A stretch of 46,841 nucleotides of DNA from positions 1-46,841 of IMG/VR virus record IMGVR_UViG_2648501797_000005; one strand, given 5' to 3'. The stretch comes from a virus (Duplodnaviria > Heunggongvirae > Uroviricota > Caudoviricetes). A program made the translations under genes and the position numbers. Below, piece after piece: positions 19,475 through 39,187 of this stretch (within the stretch, counting starts at the first letter, position 1; each line of letters opens with the position of its first letter). Under the pieces are notes generated by a model that made no database searches, was not told the origin of the DNA, and worked only from the letters and a program-made list of their open reading frames with translations.

Positions 19475-21091
<1,617 letters not shown>

Positions 21092-21100
21092 TTAATGCTC

Positions 21101-21922
21101 CTATGCTGCTTTCATGGACTCCAGGAACTTGCGGCCCTTCTGGGTCAGCATGTCCTCGGGAATGCTGCGGAGGTTGTACAGATAGGTGACGTAGCACCGA
21201 CAGAAAACCTCTTCGCCAGGCTGCGTAATTTCGTCTAGATAGCCGGCAGGGCCAGCTTTGACATAGCCATTTTTCTGCGCCCAGTTCCCGCGGATGAGAT
21301 AGACCAGCTTGTCACGTTCCTTGTGATCTTCCCGGTAGTCGTACCCTGGCTGGCGCCAGTGGCTATGCCACTCGGCAGCAATCGCGTTGTTGCCCTTCGC
21401 GATGATGTTGTCGATATTGGCGATCAGCTTATGGCCCTGGTCAATCATCACGCGGCGCGCTTCATAGTCCACCTTCTCGGCGGCCTTCTGAATGTGCGCC
21501 GCCGTCTCCCGCATCGTTCCCTGAATGCCGGTCAGCGCAATGCTGTCTGCTGAGGGAATGCTGCTGGCCCATCCGCTAAACCGCGACAGAGTAGTGTCGA
21601 TGGCTTTCTTGCGATTCAGCTTTATCAGGTCAGCGCTGGCCAGGATGCGGCGATCCAGCTCGCTGCGTAACTTCGGCTCCATGTAGTTCAGCGTGAAGCG
21701 TGAAAGCCCCTTGTGGCGCTCCAGCGCTCCAGCCTTGCTCACCTGCAGGTCATAGGTCTTACGCAACCGATCCGACACCATGCTCATGTAGTCGTCATCG
21801 GTTTCGCTTTCGGCCGCCTGCCGGATAATGGCCTGCCATTGCTCCAGCTCCTGCCTCGAGGTGTAGCCATTGCGCAGAAAGAACTTCACCGCCTCGCGTA
21901 CGGTTCGCGTGAAAGTCTTCAT
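21101..21922 (-). CDS. head morphogenesis / minor head protein (273 aa)
   Basis: Directly follows portal with ATGA overlap. Confidence 0.45.
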   Translation of the reverse strand: MKTFTRTVREAVKFFLRNGYTSRQELEQWQAIIRQAAESETDDDYMSMVSDRLRKTYDLQVSKAGALERHKGLSRFTLNYMEPKLRSELDRRILASADLIKLNRKKAIDTTLSRFSGWASSIPSADSIALTGIQGTMRETAAHIQKAAEKVDYEARRVMIDQGHKLIANIDNIIAKGNNAIAAEWHSHWRQPGYDYREDHKERDKLVYLIRGNWAQKNGYVKAGPAGYLDEITQPGEEVFCRCYVTYLYNLRSIPEDMLTQKGRKFLESMKAA

Positions 21923-23334
21923 AGCATCATCCCGCCGCCGGGCTCTTCATCCCGTGGCTGTTCAGGCCGGTTAGCCTTTAACGAGTCGATATCGAGATCA
22001 AGTCGCTGCGGGAACAGGCTTTCGTTAGCGTTCGCATTGGTCTGCGCCCACTCGATAAGAAGCGCGCGGTTCTCATCATCCGTGTTTACCTGCGGGAGAA
22101 GGACTTCCAGCATGCTGACGATGGCCTTAAAGCGGATTTCGTCGACCTTCACTTTTTCGCTTTCCGGCTCTTTCAGGGATGACGGCCAGCGATATTCGAA
22201 GTTGTTAATCCATGAGGAGAAATACAGGCTGTACGTGTTTTTAAGCTCCGGGAAGTCAGCACGCAGAGAATTGAAAAACTCAATGCTCCAGGCGCGATAC
22301 TGGCAAATACGGATGAAATAGTCATACAGCGGCTCAAGCCACTCGCGGATGTTGTCGATGTAGACTGCAACAGATCGAGCGTCTTCCGTCCCCTCGCCGA
22401 AGCCCTGGGCGAATGTTTCCGAGTTCAGAATGATAGCCGGCATGTCAGCTGCCGCAGCGATATTCTCCAGAATGTGATTCCGGGAGGAGTCGAGCGGCTT
22501 TTCCAGGTTGCTCAGGTCGATGGATTCGATGCTGTCATTTGCGCCGATCTGCAGGACTTCGCCTGTCTTCCCTCGCTTCAGCATCATTCGTTTGATGCCG
22601 CTGAGCTTTTGCATCATGTTGTTGACGACTGAGCTCGGTCCCTGAATCTTCGTTACCAGCAAGCCACCCTTCACGGAAACCATGTCATCGGTGCGCATGG
22701 TCTGGATGAAGGATTTCAGCGGGAACAGAGCGCGCTGGTAAACGCTGCGTCCGGTAAAGCCAAAGGCCGCAGAGTTATAGGCCAGATAAATCGGGTCCTC
22801 GTTCTGTTGCACGACGCAGCGGGATTTGTGATACGGCTTGCCCGCCACTCTGATCCCGTCGACCTTCTGGAAGTCCTGCGCGTTCGGATCCTGGTTCAGG
22901 ACGATGCTTCCGGCAGTGTTCAGCGGGTCGAGAATGTTGAATGTCACGTTGTGCTTATACAGCGTGCGGTAGTCCACCGCAGAGGACGGCTCCTGGTTAT
23001 CAACCAGCATTGCGATCGCCGAAACACCGTAAATGCGAGAGATGCGCGCCGCATTAGCGATGTGCTTATCGGCGCCCAGTGCTTTCCACTCCCGCTCAAA
23101 TGCATCGCGGAGACGCTGCTCAATGCCATACGCCTGCGAAATGTGAACCGTGCGCGACTCGTTCATCGCCATCTTGATCGGGCGATCTACCATTTTCCCG
23201 CCAAGCGGGTGGAAGAGGTAAATCGTTTTGCAGGTCTGATAGCCAGCCGACATACCCGGCTGAATATCATCACTGTCCAGGAGCGTGATCAGCTCCGGCG
23301 AGCAACTGCCGATTGCGATATCATCTTCGTTCAT
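21919..23334 (-). CDS. portal protein (471 aa)
   Basis: Size and position immediately after terminase large subunit. Confidence 0.6.
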   Translation of the reverse strand: MNEDDIAIGSCSPELITLLDSDDIQPGMSAGYQTCKTIYLFHPLGGKMVDRPIKMAMNESRTVHISQAYGIEQRLRDAFEREWKALGADKHIANAARISRIYGVSAIAMLVDNQEPSSAVDYRTLYKHNVTFNILDPLNTAGSIVLNQDPNAQDFQKVDGIRVAGKPYHKSRCVVQQNEDPIYLAYNSAAFGFTGRSVYQRALFPLKSFIQTMRTDDMVSVKGGLLVTKIQGPSSVVNNMMQKLSGIKRMMLKRGKTGEVLQIGANDSIESIDLSNLEKPLDSSRNHILENIAAAADMPAIILNSETFAQGFGEGTEDARSVAVYIDNIREWLEPLYDYFIRICQYRAWSIEFFNSLRADFPELKNTYSLYFSSWINNFEYRWPSSLKEPESEKVKVDEIRFKAIVSMLEVLLPQVNTDDENRALLIEWAQTNANANESLFPQRLDLDIDSLKANRPEQPRDEEPGGGMML

Positions 23335-33879: not shown

Positions 33880-34059
33880 GTTTCACTCCTGCTTTGGCTA
33901 GTCTGTAAACACCAACAAGGCGCTCTGCGAACGCCCTGTTATTTGCTGCGGCTACCACTAATCCCTCAGGTGAATCAGGGTGTCGAATCTCTTCTTTTTC
34001 CTGGTATTTCTTACGACGTTTTGTCATAATTACTCCTGTGGATTGATCCAGTAATTCCC

Positions 34060-34356
34060 TCAGAATTGCATATCAATTTGCTTAAAATCCTCGGTGGCGG
34101 CCGGGGATTTTTTCTTTGTGATTTCATCAAGCGCATACTTAAAAGCCCTGCTAATCGGACTGATGTCTGATGCCATTCCGAAAGCACACAAGACCGAAGC
34201 AATAAATCTCCAGTCCGTTCTGCTTATCTTCGATTCATGACAGCCAATCATCTTTGCCAGACCGCGCTGGGTAAGCGTTGACAGGTTGATGAGTAAATCA
34301 GTTTCTGCGCGATCAATTTCTCGCTGTGTTGGCTTGCTGTAACTTGCTTGTGTCAT
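34060..34356 (-). CDS. cII: CII-like transcriptional activator (diverged from lambda CII)
   Basis: Position after cro/nutR; C-terminus KKKSPAATE...QIDMQF resembles lambda CII C-terminus. Confidence 0.55.
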   Translation of the reverse strand: MTQASYSKPTQREIDRAETDLLINLSTLTQRGLAKMIGCHESKISRTDWRFIASVLCAFGMASDISPISRAFKYALDEITKKKSPAATEDFKQIDMQF

Positions 34357-34440
34357 TTGTTAATTTTCCAATAGTGAATAGTTAGTTGAAAGGTATGCGT
34401 GGAAACGCATATGGCCTTAGTTGGTCAGATATATTGGGAC

Positions 34441-34455
34441 TCGCTTTGTCAGCGA
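34441..34455 (-). promoter_or_regulatory. putative nutR boxB hairpin (P22-type)
   Basis: Minus-strand CGCTGACAAAGCG resembles the boxB at nutL; between cro and cII. Confidence 0.35.
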
Positions 34456-34493
34456 CGTAGGACGAATGTCCATTGTGAAAATAGCGGTGTTAC

Positions 34494-34703
<210 letters not shown>

Positions 34704-34720
34704 TTAGTACATGCAACCAT

Positions 34721-34784
34721 TATCACCGCTAGAGGTAAAATAGTCAACACGCACGGTGTTAGATATTTATCCCTTGCGGTGATA
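34721..34784. promoter_or_regulatory. right operator OR1 (34721..34737), OR2 (34745..34761), OR3 (34768..34784) with divergent pR and pRM
   Basis: 17-bp sites TATCACCGCTAGAGGTA, CAACACGCACGGTGTTA, TATCCCTTGCGGTGATA; OR2 and OR3 match lambda, OR1 differs at one position from my recalled lambda OR1. Confidence 0.8.
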
Positions 34785-34791
34785 GATTTAA

Positions 34792-35508
<717 letters not shown>

Positions 35509-35585
35509 GGCCAGCAACGAATCACAACAAACACATGGGGCGGCGGATTAAGGGTGATGGAGAATCGAAATAAGTTGAGGTCAAC

Positions 35586-35741
35586 ATGAACACGTTCAGC
35601 ATAATCGCGATACCTTTTTTTGCCCTTTCAGTGGTTCTGTTGACTCTTGGCGCTACCAGGAAGAACCAAGCCAGCTTCATCGTTGGCGGCGTGTTTATGG
35701 CGTCATGCGTGGTTAATGCCATTATCGGCATGTCTCTTTGA
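35586..35741 (+). CDS. small two-TM membrane peptide (51 aa) in the rex slot
   Basis: GAGG Shine-Dalgarno before ATG; MNTFSIIAIPFFALSVVLLTLGATRKNQASFIVGGVFMASCVVNAIIGMSL. Confidence 0.45.
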   Translation: MNTFSIIAIPFFALSVVLLTLGATRKNQASFIVGGVFMASCVVNAIIGMSL

Positions 35742-35933
35742 GCGCTATGAGATCAGGCATCCTCGTTACTTTGTCATGTGTGACAGCCTGGTATGCACTC
35801 TGCGAGCTTTGATGTGGTTTACCACTTTAATAGTCACCGTATCACTAAACTGATTAGCTTTACTCATACTCTTGTGGATTCGCTATTTCTGATGTCAATG
35901 CAAAAAAATACTAAGGAAACAAAAAGGATACTT

Positions 35934-36200
35934 ATGTCAGATAACACTATTAAAATCATACCTCAGCACATGACCGCCACATCAGTTCTTATTACGCCTG
36001 ATCGTGCTGAAACAATCATTACTTTTTACCGCCATGAATTTGAGCATCACATGCAGCCTGATGAGCAAGGAAAGAATAGCTTCCAAGTAAAAGTTGAGTT
36101 GACCCCTAACATGTCAGTCTCAATGAGCCCGGATCAAGCTGTTGCATTAGTAAAATCATTACAGGTAGCTCTCAGGGATAATGGGCTATGGAAAGACTGA
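35934..36200 (+). CDS. hypothetical soluble protein (88 aa) in the rex slot
   Basis: AGGA Shine-Dalgarno before ATG 35934 (track ORF opens at 35793); stop overlaps the next gene start. Confidence 0.45.
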   Translation: MSDNTIKIIPQHMTATSVLITPDRAETIITFYRHEFEHHMQPDEQGKNSFQVKVELTPNMSVSMSPDQAVALVKSLQVALRDNGLWKD

Positions 36201-36838
36201 AGCCAGTTTCTTCAGTTCAACCTACCTCAGGAACAACATCATCAGTTCTTCCAAGTATTATAGTTAGTGCAACCCTAGCAGCGACAACCGTTTCTCCTTA
36301 TGGGGATCCATCTCAGTACCAAAGTATTGGTATTGATGCTAAGGTATCAAATAGAGTTTCATACGCCATGGACGAAACGGGTTTGCGCCCAAGTAAGGAA
36401 GATGTAGCGATGAAGAGTGATACCCTGGAGGTAAGCGTGAGCGGAATGTCCAGAGAAGAACTTGACGCAAAGCTTTCACAAAACAAATCAGAGGTAGAGT
36501 CTATTGCTGCGGAAATGCGTCGCGAATCAGCTGACTTTAAAACCTATTATACTCAGCAATTTTCTTCTATTGAGAGAGGTATTGCTGAAATTAAAGGTGA
36601 AATCGGCGGTTTGAAAACGGGACTTACAACGACTCAGTGGGCGATGGCCGTTGGCTTGACTTTAGTTACTGTGATTCTGTCTGGCGTGATGTTAGCCTCA
36701 AGTTGGATTATCTCCGGCAATGACAAGTCACCATCAGTAACCAGCCCGGCTCCAATTATAATACAGGTACCGACACAGCAACCATTAACGAGCGCTCCAA
36801 CTAACCAATCGTCATCACAACAAGCTCCTAAGCAATAA
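36188..36838 (+). CDS. bitopic membrane protein (216 aa): coiled coil, single TM, Pro/Ser/Thr/Gln-rich tail
   Basis: Start overlaps upstream stop; TM WAMAVGLTLVTVILSGVMLASSWII; same strand and presumably same transcript as cI. Confidence 0.55.
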   Translation: MERLKPVSSVQPTSGTTSSVLPSIIVSATLAATTVSPYGDPSQYQSIGIDAKVSNRVSYAMDETGLRPSKEDVAMKSDTLEVSVSGMSREELDAKLSQNKSEVESIAAEMRRESADFKTYYTQQFSSIERGIAEIKGEIGGLKTGLTTTQWAMAVGLTLVTVILSGVMLASSWIISGNDKSPSVTSPAPIIIQVPTQQPLTSAPTNQSSSQQAPKQ

Positions 36839-36840
36839 AT

Positions 36841-36869
36841 AAACCCGGCCACCGCGCCGGGTTTTCTTT
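36841..36869 (+). terminator. intrinsic terminator closing the cI-cassette transcript
   Basis: ACCCGGCC...GCCGGGT hairpin followed by TTTTCTTT. Confidence 0.55.
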
Positions 36870-37020
36870 GCCTCACGTTCGCCCCAAAACACATAACCAA
36901 TTGTATTTATTTGAAAATTAATAGATACAACTCACTAAACATCGCAATTCAGATCTCTCGATCACCTCCCAAGCCACACACCCCTGCAAAAAAATAAATC
37001 TATATAAAAAACATACAGAT

Positions 37021-37083
37021 AACCATCTGCGGTGATAAATTATCTCTGGCGGTGTTGACATAAATACCACTGGCGGTGATACT
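37021..37083. promoter_or_regulatory. left operator OL3/OL2/OL1 with pL (-35 TTGACA 37055..37060, -10 GATACT 37078..37083)
   Basis: AACCATCTGCGGTGATA, TATCTCTGGCGGTGTTG, TACCACTGGCGGTGATA match lambda OL sites. Confidence 0.85.
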
Positions 37084-37151
37084 AAACACATCAGCAGGAC
37101 GCACTACTCACCAGGGCGGTGAATATACAACGATTCGAATATGAATCTACG

Positions 37152-37166
37152 GCGCTGACAAAGCGC
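37152..37166 (+). promoter_or_regulatory. nutL boxB, P22-type
   Basis: GCGCTGACAAAGCGC hairpin in the pL leader, matching the P22 boxB as I recall it. Confidence 0.5.
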
Positions 37167-37331
37167 AATAACCAAAGTGAACTTTGGGGTGTGGTGAAGG
37201 GTTCATGGACGGGAATATGTCGCACGTAAAGCGGCGAGGCCTGCGGGACTATTGCCGAATTGAAGTAGGCCGAAACAGGTCGAAATGGGTCTCCCACCTA
37301 CCACACCACCAAAGTTCATCAGGAGGTCTAT

Positions 37332-37715
37332 ATGACACGCAGAACTCAGTTCAAAGGCAATTCACGTTCTCGTCGTCGTGAGCGTTTAAAGGCAAAGGCA
37401 TTAGCTAACGGCGTACTGGCCCGCGAAGAAGCAATAAGTTCAGAAGTATTACACCGCCCTACTCTAAGCAGAGCGCAGATTCAGGCTAAAGGTACTCACG
37501 AAACGCCTGAGCGCATAGAAGACGCTAAGCCAATTAAGTTCATGGCACAGGACGTGATCTGGCAACAGAAAGAATACAGACGCAATCTGGAGAGAGCGGC
37601 CATTGTGTACGCGAATGAGTTTGGGCATAGGCAACCAGAAACTGGTGTATGTCTTCCAAATGTAGCTCTTTACGCGGCAGGCTACAGGAAATCAAAACAA
37701 CTGACAGCAAGGTGA
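37332..37715 (+). CDS. N-family antiterminator (P22 gene 24-like, not lambda N)
   Basis: First gene after pL; Arg-rich N-terminus (RRTQFKGNSRSRRRERLKAK); C-terminus VALYAAGYRKSKQLTAR resembles P22 gp24. Confidence 0.7.
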   Translation: MTRRTQFKGNSRSRRRERLKAKALANGVLAREEAISSEVLHRPTLSRAQIQAKGTHETPERIEDAKPIKFMAQDVIWQQKEYRRNLERAAIVYANEFGHRQPETGVCLPNVALYAAGYRKSKQLTAR

Positions 37716-37843
37716 CTTGTGTTGGTCGCCAGAAAATGAAATTAGGCAGCAAACCACTTATTTGAGGTGATATATGGAAGAAGAATTTGAAGAGTTCGAA
37801 GAGCATCCGCAGGATGTGATGGAACAATACCATGATTATCCGT

Positions 37844-38044
37844 ATGACTACGACTATTGATAAGAATCAATGGTGTGGACAATTCAAGCGATGCAATGGA
37901 TGCAAGCTGCAATCGGAATGCATGGTTAAGCCTGAAGAAATGTTTCCTGTAATGGAGAATGGGAAATATGTCGATAAATGGGCAATACGAACGACGGCAA
38001 TGATTGCCAGAGAACTTGGTAAACAGAATAACAAGGCTGCCTGA
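37844..38044 (+). CDS. ral: Ral restriction-alleviation protein
   Basis: MTTTIDKNQWCGQFKRCNGCKLQSECMVKPEEMFPVME... matches lambda Ral as recalled. Confidence 0.85.
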   Translation: MTTTIDKNQWCGQFKRCNGCKLQSECMVKPEEMFPVMENGKYVDKWAIRTTAMIARELGKQNNKAA

Positions 38045-38180
38045 TGGTGGCCTTTATTTTTGGCATAAACAACAGAATAAACACAGCACTGTGTATTCAT
38101 TCCAATGAGTGAATACACGGAGCAATGTCGCTCGTAACTAAACAGGAGCCGACTTGTTCTGATTATTGGAAATCTTCTTT

Positions 38181-38206
38181 GCCCTCCAGTGTGAGGGCAT
38201 TTTTTT
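38181..38206 (+). terminator. intrinsic terminator-like hairpin within the pL operon
   Basis: GCCCTC-cagtgt-GAGGGC followed by ATTTTTTTG. Confidence 0.4.
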
Positions 38207-38218
38207 GATGGAGGATAT

Positions 38219-39187
38219 ATGAGTGAAGTAACAGATTTAGTTGTTATTGAAAAAGCAAATGCAATGACTGTATTTCAGTCTGCCGACCAGATTGAAGAAA
38301 TCCTTCAAAGGGTTGAACGTGAAGTTATGTCCTTTGTGCCTGATATCACAACGGCAAAGGGCAGAAAGGAGATCGCTTCTCTGGCGTATAAAGTTGCGCA
38401 GACGAAAACATATCTCGATGGTCTTGGCAAAGACCTTGTTGCTGAACTGAAGGAAATTCCAAAGCTAATTGATGCCAACCGCAAGACAGTGCGTGATCGC
38501 CTTGATGAGCTGAAAGCCAAGGCGCGCCAGCCTCTTACTGATTATGAGGAGGAACAGGCACGGATTAAAGCCGAAGAAGAAGCTAAGGCAGCAGCTGAAG
38601 CTCTCGCAAAGCAAATTGAGTCTGACCATGAAATAGCGATTTTGATGGATCGCGAATTTGACCGCCAAAGAGAAGAGGCAAGACTCAAAGCGGAGCGGGA
38701 AAAGCGAGAGCATGAAGAACGCTTAAAAAGAGAAGCTGAAGAGAAAGCCAGAGCAGAAGCCGAAGCAAAGGCAAAAGCCGAAATTGAAGCAGCAGCAAGG
38801 CGAGAAGCAGAAGCTAAGGCCGCAGCGGAACGTGCAGAGCGTGAACGCATTGAAGCCGAGCAACGAGCACTGCGCGAAGCAAAAGAGGCAGCAGAACGAG
38901 CTGAAAGAGAAAAGCAGGCTGCAATTGAAGCAGAACGCAGAAAAGCACAGGAGGAGGCTGAACGAATCCGGCGCGAGGCTGAAGCAAAAGAGCAAGCCAG
39001 AATAGCAGAAGAAAAAAGAATCAAGGAAGAAGAAGAGCGTAGAGCAAAGGATAAAGCTCACCGGAAAGAAGTAAATAACAAAATACTTGCTGACCTTATC
39101 AAGGTTGGCGCATCAGAAGATGTTGCTAAAAATATCATAACAGCCATCGTAAAAGGCGAAGTATTCGCAACAAAAATAACCTACTAA
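38219..39187 (+). CDS. hypothetical protein (322 aa) with long Glu/Arg/Lys/Ala-rich coiled coil
   Basis: GGAGG Shine-Dalgarno; globular N- and C-terminal segments around a roughly 180-aa charged repeat region. Confidence 0.5.
   Translation: MSEVTDLVVIEKANAMTVFQSADQIEEILQRVEREVMSFVPDITTAKGRKEIASLAYKVAQTKTYLDGLGKDLVAELKEIPKLIDANRKTVRDRLDELKAKARQPLTDYEEEQARIKAEEEAKAAAEALAKQIESDHEIAILMDREFDRQREEARLKAEREKREHEERLKREAEEKARAEAEAKAKAEIEAAARREAEAKAAAERAERERIEAEQRALREAKEAAERAEREKQAAIEAERRKAQEEAERIRREAEAKEQARIAEEKRIKEEEERRAKDKAHRKEVNNKILADLIKVGASEDVAKNIITAIVKGEVFATKITY

Follow-up and report, generated by a model that had tools for sequence, protein, structure and literature searches.

What occupies the slot between a canonical lambda cI repressor gene and the left operators and promoter (OL/pL) when rexAB, which the slot holds in lambda, is not there? 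The case considered here is positions 35509-36869 of a 46,841-nucleotide (nt) stretch of Caudoviricetes DNA (IMG/VR record IMGVR_UViG_2648501797_000005), hereafter the window. An initial annotation had taken up this part as a new cassette of three translationally coupled, membrane-associated genes whose products it did not recognize. When identity was measured over 35509-36900, the DNA was 99.6% identical to that of phage HK97, in which the two larger open reading frames (ORFs) encode Gp49 (NP_037734) and Gp48 (NP_037733), both annotated as hypothetical proteins. Thus, the 88- and 216-amino-acid (aa) proteins are known by name, and the cassette is not novel, because HK97 DNA was sequenced in 2000. 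The three ORFs were found where they had been placed, on the cI strand:

35586..35741, + strand: gene for a predicted 51-aa, two-helix inner-membrane protein, with a GAGG Shine-Dalgarno sequence 5 nt upstream and a basic TRKN loop between the helices.
35934..36200, + strand: gp49, encoding the predicted 88-aa soluble partner (phrog_26809, partner class A), with an AGGA Shine-Dalgarno sequence.
36188..36838, + strand: gp48, encoding a 216-aa protein (phrog_5820).

The cassette was also present in HK225 (99.7% identity, next to a different repressor), in Lambdavirus PDP110P1 (99.8%), and in Escherichia coli ST540 (100%), and it occurred at full length in 52 of 5,426 complete E. coli genomes (about 1%). 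The ST540 prophage, inserted next to ybhC at the attachment site of lambda, has the same layout as the window. Relative to HK97 genes 49/48, the genes are identical, cI, the terminator, and N are also the same, and nothing of substance differs; outside this locus, the window prophage is a mosaic that differs from HK97. Judged by these identities, the interval corresponds to the accessory locus in the immunity region of HK97; its carrier is a mosaic lambdoid prophage that occupies the lambda attachment site, toward ybhC, in an E. coli resembling strain ST540.

The interval holds two independent modules, the 51-aa gene and the gp49-gp48 pair, rather than one three-gene unit, because each occurs without the other elsewhere. 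Translational coupling is upheld for the pair, in which the gp49 stop and gp48 start overlap by 13 nt (ATGGAAAGACTGA; an overlap retained in the Klebsiella michiganensis homologue), but not for the 51-aa ORF, which ends 192 nt before gp49. The description of the 88-aa protein as His-rich is weak (4 His in 88 residues), whereas that of the 216-aa protein as a coiled coil, one membrane helix, and a Pro/Ser/Thr/Gln-rich tail was confirmed. A survey of the slot from cI to N in other prophages, which the initial annotation had proposed, showed relatives of gp49-gp48 recurring after repressors; in the diverged pairs, the 51-aa gene did not accompany them.

Both proteins of the pair match PHROGs families that carry no functional assignment: Gp49 matches phrog_26809 (E 2.3e-61, residues 1-88) and Gp48 matches phrog_5820 (E 9.6e-69, residues 20-210 on profile positions 2-198 of 200). 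A word-indexed search returned 11 Gp48 and 6 Gp49 clusters. A full profile search of 1.84 billion representatives returned 203 Gp48-like proteins at E ≤ 1e-3 and 107 at E ≤ 1e-10, and almost all of the best 150 of the 203 were 90-280 aa long. Cluster representatives of the family were taken at 50% identity (approximately 200 clusters), and architecture statistics rest on 100 aligned members, all 100 of which matched phrog_5820. The gp48 gene is divided as follows:

36188..36448, + strand: residues 1-87, variable N-terminal region, predicted to be disordered, with the class-A motif.
36449..36631, + strand: residues 88-148, coiled-coil core (SREELDAKLxQNKAEV..AAEMRRE...), conserved throughout the family.
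36635..36712, + strand: residues 150-175, single predicted transmembrane helix.
36713..36838, + strand: residues 176-216 and stop, Pro/Gln/Ser/Thr-rich tail with a PIIIQVP motif, probably periplasmic.

Across the family, the N-terminus is variable (40-110 residues), the coiled coil has the consensus ISREELDAKLxxNKAEV.A.AA.MR.EMA, and one strong C-proximal hydrophobic helix was present in 95 of the 100 members. Tail length ranged from 1 to 65 residues (median 34). The summed fraction of Pro, Gln, Ser, and Thr in the tail was 0.61 in the window protein, and its family mean was 0.47 vs. 0.28 for whole proteins; PIIIQVP is conserved in E. coli, Yersinia, and Kosakonia. A cytoplasmic N-terminus is favored for Gp48 because Lys plus Arg amount to 1.81 per 15 residues before the helix vs. 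1.09 after it, and because there is no signal peptide. A second helix at residues 21-38 was considered and rejected: its mean hydropathy, computed by hand, was about 1.5, the region is absent from most relatives, and a second hydrophobic window was seen in 1 of the 100. The AlphaFold2 model of Gp48 (9-sequence alignment) had a mean predicted local distance difference test score (pLDDT) of 51.6 and was confident solely for helix 89-142 (pLDDT 85-90), with disorder predicted for the N-terminus and the tail.

To define the genomic setting, approximately 30 distinct loci, taken from the contigs that encode homologues and from a scan of IMG/VR, were mapped by ORF calling. In all of them, a small ORF of 84-165 aa abuts or overlaps the gp48-like gene upstream on the same strand. 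The pairs fall into three recurring types of site: after a repressor (the rex slot), after mnt (the P22 sieA slot), and antisense in a tail operon (a gp15-type slot). Pairs in the repressor slot lie directly 3′ of the repressor, with cro/cII divergent. When 18 genes that lie nearest upstream on the same strand were scanned, 16 encoded an HTH_3 domain, and 12 encoded a Peptidase_S24 domain as well. The upstream repressors are unrelated and of five or more types, including lambda cI, the HK225 repressor, a 132-aa HTH protein with YdaS/YdaT, and several S24 repressors from Yersinia and Kosakonia.

One P22-like prophage (L047) has the tailspike, Ant, and Arc genes on one strand and Mnt, the partner, and the gp48-like gene on the other. 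In the gene order of P22, sieA occupies the position after mnt (PMC10461980), so that the order Mnt, partner, gp48-like gene places this pair at the sieA position. In loci of the Xenorhabdus type, the pair adjoins Arc-family and KilA-N/Bro-N genes. In three further loci (L051, L053, and L054), it lies antisense between the gene for a Big_2 tail protein with DUF6246 and the tape measure gene; the HK97 gp15 moron lies in such a site, between the tail chaperone and the tape measure (PMC3594210). All three sites are ones that classically hold lysogen-expressed exclusion genes. The argument from the position of the rex slot was thus strengthened, both by the variable cargo after lambda-type cI and by the relatives in further exclusion-gene slots.

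The partners could be grouped into classes. Class A, the Gp49-like partners, comprises those of HK97, Klebsiella, L034, and L036-39 (46-66% identity to Gp49 in the Klebsiella and IMG/VR loci). Partners of classes B, C, and D, together with those of Kosakonia and L050, align with one another, and a weak profile link joins them to class A (hhalign probability 54%, E 1.3e-4, 56 collinear columns). Class E partners are four-cysteine, zinc-ribbon-like proteins, and classes E and F are unrelated to Gp49. Every partner class is paired with its own short motif in the N-terminus of the Gp48-like protein:

Class A: S-x-[IV]-[IV]-[ST]-A-T-L...Y
Class B: VDxFxMPAYHEK
Class C: xAYY[DE]
Class D: GAYSNVIGLD
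Class E: NVAYVIGWIDLD

When pairs were compared, we observed cores that were 60-94% identical next to partners and N-termini that were less than 30% identical. Thus, L041 and L048 share 94% of the core, 7% of the partner, and 16% of the N-terminus, and L008 and L033 share 84%, 1%, and 16%, respectively. The converse was found between HK97 and Klebsiella (core 34%, partner 66%, N-terminus 28%), and HK97 Gp48 is itself a class-A N-terminus on a Yersinia-like core (65% identical to L004). The partner with the N-terminus and the core of coiled coil, helix, and tail have had separate histories. These separate histories suggest that the membrane part is kept constant while a part conferring specificity, to which the partner belongs, is exchanged; they also hint that the partner and the Gp48 N-terminus touch each other.

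The 51-aa gene of the first module is without annotation in HK97 and ST540, and HK225 carries minus-strand ORF annotations in its place. The protein database contained 36 homologous clusters (67-98% identity, mostly of exactly 51 residues) from Raoultella, Atlantibacter, Enterobacter, Kosakonia, Lelliottia, and Klebsiella. Against four homologues, the ratio of nonsynonymous to synonymous substitution rates (dN/dS) was 0.06-0.2, with synonymous sites close to saturation; the antisense frame shares the wobble positions, so that dN/dS alone cannot exclude antisense coding. The minus-strand ORFs were rejected on other grounds: the antisense ORF varies from 69 to 95 codons with shifting ends, and the 51-codon sense frame is fixed. 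DNA homology runs from the ribosome-binding site or the start codon up to the stop. The ORF is under strong purifying selection, and the homologous clusters, the low dN/dS, and the limits of DNA homology indicate that it is more than a chance ORF.

Chromosomal homologues lie between the LysE and PmrD genes in Atlantibacter and between the RIO1 and YceI genes in Lelliottia, and another was found in Raoultella. A prophage copy that is 90% identical (L063, L064) comes 15 base pairs (bp) 3′ of a repressor gene of the YdaS/YdaT type, and behind it lies different cargo, which encodes a 331-aa ClpP/NfeD-like protein. Conversely, diverged gp49-gp48 pairs have just 25-100 bp between the repressor and the partner, which leaves no room for the 51-aa gene. 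The homologues, the selection, and the separate contexts together show this to be a real gene for a small two-helix membrane protein that travels independently of gp49-gp48. We infer that the first module was captured from the chromosome of an enterobacterium, a parallel to HK97 gp15, which derives from the chromosomal small membrane protein YebO (PMC3594210).

On the Raoultella planticola chromosome (L065:3738-4156), the homologue overlaps the end of an 88-aa DUF6500 gene by 4 nt and has small genes of toxin type around it (GhoT/OrtT, GnsAB, YncL), a hint of a neighborhood of small membrane proteins. Extra small ORFs with one or two predicted membrane helices, not homologous to the 51-aa protein, were also seen next to the pair elsewhere: two, of 132 and 135 aa, after the Yersinia cI (L004:4746-5691); two, of 160 and 59 aa, in L050 (-1175..-530, counted from the start of the gp48-like gene); and, after the pair in L047, a 75-aa ORF with two helices (+607..+834, counted in the same way). 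The pair seems often to have small membrane proteins as companions.

In its insertion between genes that are adjacent in relatives, the locus resembles a moron in the sense of Juhala et al. 2000 as summarized in PMC3594210: the same cI and terminator flank rexAB, HicAB, or gp49-gp48. The interval from repressor to N is a common site of morons and accessory loci, according to a review citing Degnan 2007, and bstA, which is transcribed from the cI promoter, occupies the same slot (PMC7067206). In mEp234 and HK106, whose cI is 99.9% identical to that of the window, HicAB and one ORF lie between the shared 51 nt that follow cI and the shared terminator; in mEp234 (L066, NC_019715 26874-28004), a HicA/HicB pair and a 141-aa hypothetical protein replace gp49-gp48 or rexAB. 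Between cI and position 36841 of the window, neither a strong terminator nor a consensus promoter was found. A weak 5-bp hairpin lies at 35716..35731, at the 3′ end of the 51-aa ORF. The lack of such signals is the one observation from which we infer read-through of both modules from pRM in the lysogen.

We consider it about 40% probable that gp49-gp48 protects against phages, as a system that is expressed in the lysogen, anchored in the membrane, and equipped with a sensor that can be swapped; this reading is built on comparative sequence data and on analogy. Both modules would be read from pRM together with cI, as rexAB is in lambda. Gp49 would be a small cytoplasmic partner, and Gp48 would present, from the cytoplasm outward, its variable N-terminus, the coiled coil, the membrane helix, and a short Pro/Gln-rich outer tail. 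The coiled coil may oligomerize at the inner membrane, making Gp48 the constant effector or anchor, and Gp49 with the Gp48 N-terminal segment would form an exchangeable specificity unit, both sensor and keeper, that holds Gp48 inactive. A component of a superinfecting phage would engage this unit and release Gp48. The freed protein could then compromise the membrane or block a membrane-linked step of the invader, and the infection would abort.

The locus is like Rex only in its position and in its combination of components. The likeness comprises the slot between cI and OL, the strand, the closing terminator, a soluble and an inner-membrane component, and presumed pRM read-through. RexB is a multi-pass membrane protein of 144 aa, whereas Gp48 combines one helix with a coiled coil; RexA has 279 aa and Gp49 has 88, and the gene order relative to size differs from that of rexAB. 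A multi-pass membrane component like that of Rex was not found in the pair, since Gp48 has one hydrophobic helix and the two-helix 51-aa protein belongs to the independent module. The claim that the slot does not encode RexA or RexB was borne out: BLASTP of the three window proteins against both lambda proteins gave a best E of 1.5, and sequence search showed no similarity to Rex or to any PADLOC model. The gp30/gp31 pairs of the actinobacteriophages Sbash and Butters, which reportedly are lysogen-expressed cytoplasmic and membrane defense proteins likened to Rex, also combine a soluble and a membrane protein, as Gp49-Gp48 does; this is analogy only, and the hosts are unrelated.

Alternatively, the genes could be lysogenic-conversion cargo outside phage conflict, with an envelope or stress role like that of the tail-anchored coiled-coil proteins ElaB and YqjD, or selfish cargo without benefit to the host. 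The layout of Gp48, a coiled coil followed by a C-terminal membrane helix, is also that of the CCDC90-like proteins of Pfam PF07798 (DUF1640). About one-third of the Gp48 family gives weak matches to coiled-coil Pfam families, PF07798 among them (34 of the 100 members at E ≤ 0.01, best E 2e-8), and the family as a whole may be distantly linked to PF07798. The window Gp48 scored 12.6 bits (E 0.12), below the gathering cut-off of 33.5; coiled-coil similarity is prone to compositional artifact, and the bacterial members of PF07798 have no known function, so that nothing can be transferred from them. The housekeeping-looking chromosomal homologues of the 51-aa protein and the absence of a match to defense models would also fit this account. 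We regard it as unlikely, since the Gp48 family is confined to prophage accessory slots and the fast exchange of partner and N-terminus on a conserved core is the pattern of an arms race, not of housekeeping.

The inner-membrane location predicted for Gp48 and the relatives of the pair in the sieA slot after mnt and in the gp15-type tail-operon slot could instead point to superinfection exclusion at entry, in which Gp48, possibly with the 51-aa protein, would stop DNA injection without killing the cell, as do SieA and gp15, likewise prophage-expressed inner-membrane proteins. The conserved PIIIQVP motif outside the membrane and the gp15-like chromosomal origin proposed for the 51-aa protein would fit as well. 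P22 SieA has three membrane helices and a cytoplasmic FnRYPnEAnnFNK motif (PMC10461980), whereas Gp48 has one helix, and a regular-expression search of it found neither that motif nor RYP. HK97 gp15 is a small YebO-like protein, and Gp48 has no YebO-like match. Neither SieA nor gp15 requires a partner gene, and known entry blockers act alone, whereas gp48-like genes always have a co-encoded cytoplasmic partner. Moreover, the conserved bulk of Gp48 is predicted to face the cytoplasm, and an outer tail that can shrink to 1 residue looks dispensable. We consider an entry block rather improbable.

Equally improbable in our judgment is a toxin-antitoxin-like or prophage-maintenance pair, with Gp49 as neutralizer and Gp48 as membrane toxin, that would stabilize the prophage or modulate the lysis-lysogeny switch: a small upstream gene overlapping a larger downstream one is the typical type II layout, HicAB stands in the same slot of mEp234 and HK106, and RexAB reportedly affects the switch (bioRxiv 10.1101/2021.04.19.439022), but domain searches of Gp49 detected neither a DNA-binding nor a known antitoxin domain (no Pfam or NCBIfam domain was found in Gp49 or Gp48), the antisense copies in tail operons, far from the immunity region, argue against a role in the switch, and many such systems are abortive-infection systems, in which case this account overlaps with the anti-phage one.

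Several observations weigh against the anti-phage model. The argument from genomic position amounts to guilt by association, and toxin-antitoxin pairs and genes with other functions are found in the same slots as well. Because classes E and F are unrelated to Gp49, the partner may lack a single role. The AlphaFold2 model of Gp49 (3 sequences, mean pLDDT 49.4) is unreliable, and the best Foldseek match of this low-confidence model in the PDB (E 0.53) is meaningless; with models this poor, contact between Gp49 and Gp48 is conjecture, as is any pore or oligomer. None of the three proteins matched a Pfam, NCBIfam, or PADLOC model above threshold, and PDB sequence and profile searches returned coiled-coil noise only. 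A literature search by gene name, accession, PHROG number, and HK97 lysogen phenotype yielded no function, and a published test may exist in Brenes & Laub 2025, Juhala 2000, Degnan 2007, or Cumby 2012. Of two features looked for in a moron, a terminator is present, and a crude scan detected no consensus sigma-70 promoter in 35509-35933 or upstream of the antisense copies in L051 and L053; nor does G+C content contrast with that of the neighbors (0.39-0.49 inside vs. 0.40-0.51 outside). Apart from these points, the Gp48 and Gp49 accessions are not listed in the DefensePredictor supplements.

A wider proposal is tentative. The phrog_5820 proteins and their variable partners could be an unrecognized, widespread two-component prophage defense family of Enterobacterales, with a constant anchored coiled-coil effector and a sensor cassette shuffled by recombination in the rex, sieA, and gp15 slots, and with HK97 as its model; the 51-aa protein would independently add another exclusion factor, one domesticated from a chromosomal gene. 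As far as checked, three findings are unpublished: that a two-gene family is conserved across three exclusion slots, that its sensor-like part is shuffled, and that a 51-aa gene lies here without annotation. HK97 is a model phage, and the genes that replace rex in it have been without a function for 25 years. Unknown cargo in the rex slot will not surprise a specialist, but the comparative picture of an obligatory pair, three slots, and a swappable N-terminus with its partner turns a "hypothetical protein" into a specific hypothesis that can be tested cheaply by standard coliphage genetics. If true, it would mean a new membrane-acting defense family with built-in change of specificity and, after gp15, another small membrane protein that a prophage took from the chromosome and domesticated; if the hypothesis fails, the cassette is mosaic cargo of the ordinary kind.

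The modules lie among the following landmarks of the immunity region:

5′ of cI, in + strand order: OR/pRM, with OR1-3 and pRM read from the sequence.
34795..35508, + strand: cI repressor gene (237 aa, lambda immunity type; Peptidase_S24 and HTH_3), with a leaderless start behind pRM/OR.
35509..35559, + strand: 51-nt segment just 3′ of cI, left mosaic boundary, 98% identical in mEp234, HK106, and mEp506.
35742..35933, + strand: 192-nt spacer found only in the HK97-type cassette, without a consensus promoter.
36841..36869, no strand assigned: bidirectional intrinsic terminator of the lambdoid immunity region (9-bp G+C-rich stem and T-run), right mosaic boundary.
37021..37083, + strand: OL3, OL2, OL1, and pL of lambda sequence, with the -35 at 37055..37060 and the -10 at 37078..37083.
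37332..37715, + strand: N antiterminator gene of the HK97 Gp47 type (127 aa), not lambda N.

The initial annotation's description of cI and OL/pL as canonical lambda, and of the cassette as closed by an intrinsic terminator, stood. The cI DNA is 100% identical to HK97 cI and 97.9% identical to lambda cI, and the protein is 99.2% identical to lambda CI, with two substitutions (T3A and K71N). As read from the sequence, OR, pRM, OL1-3, and pL match lambda save for one base of OR1: within 34701..34790, OR1 reads TATCACCGCTAGAGGTA, one base off lambda OR1, which we take to be TATCACCGCCAGAGGTA, and the remainder of OR/pRM is lambda-like. The distance from the cI stop to OL3 was 1,512 nt in the window vs. 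1,575 nt in lambda. Homology with mEp234, HK106, and mEp506, which have HicAB in the slot, stops at the end of 35509..35559, and the last approximately 59 nt of the unit are common to the annotated immunity-region terminators of mEp234, HK106, and 933W. An Rfam scan of 34000-38500 gave one match, at chance level.

In three loci, a gene of 68-69 aa follows the cargo on the opposite strand (L005:6934-7143; L063:5353-5562; and L002:4357-4563, HK225 gp41), and it belongs to Pfam DUF2767 in L005 and L063. The window lacks this gene, and its terminator directly adjoins OL. The succession of lambda operators and pL by an N of the HK97 Gp47 type indicates a mosaic joint between pL and N, and at the position of N, the RefSeq annotation of ST540 has just a 69-nt pseudogene fragment. 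Farther along the pL operon, a 322-aa ORF (38219..39187), hypothetical in ST540, has a central region extremely rich in Glu, Lys, Ala, and Arg, with an AT skew of up to 0.73. In the virion-gene region, on the minus strand (approximately 19475..23334, corresponding to L003 3967-7826), a 471-aa product is labeled "anti-CBASS protein Acb1 family protein" and its gene adjoins those of the large terminase and a 537-aa NUDIX hydrolase, all by RefSeq annotation alone.

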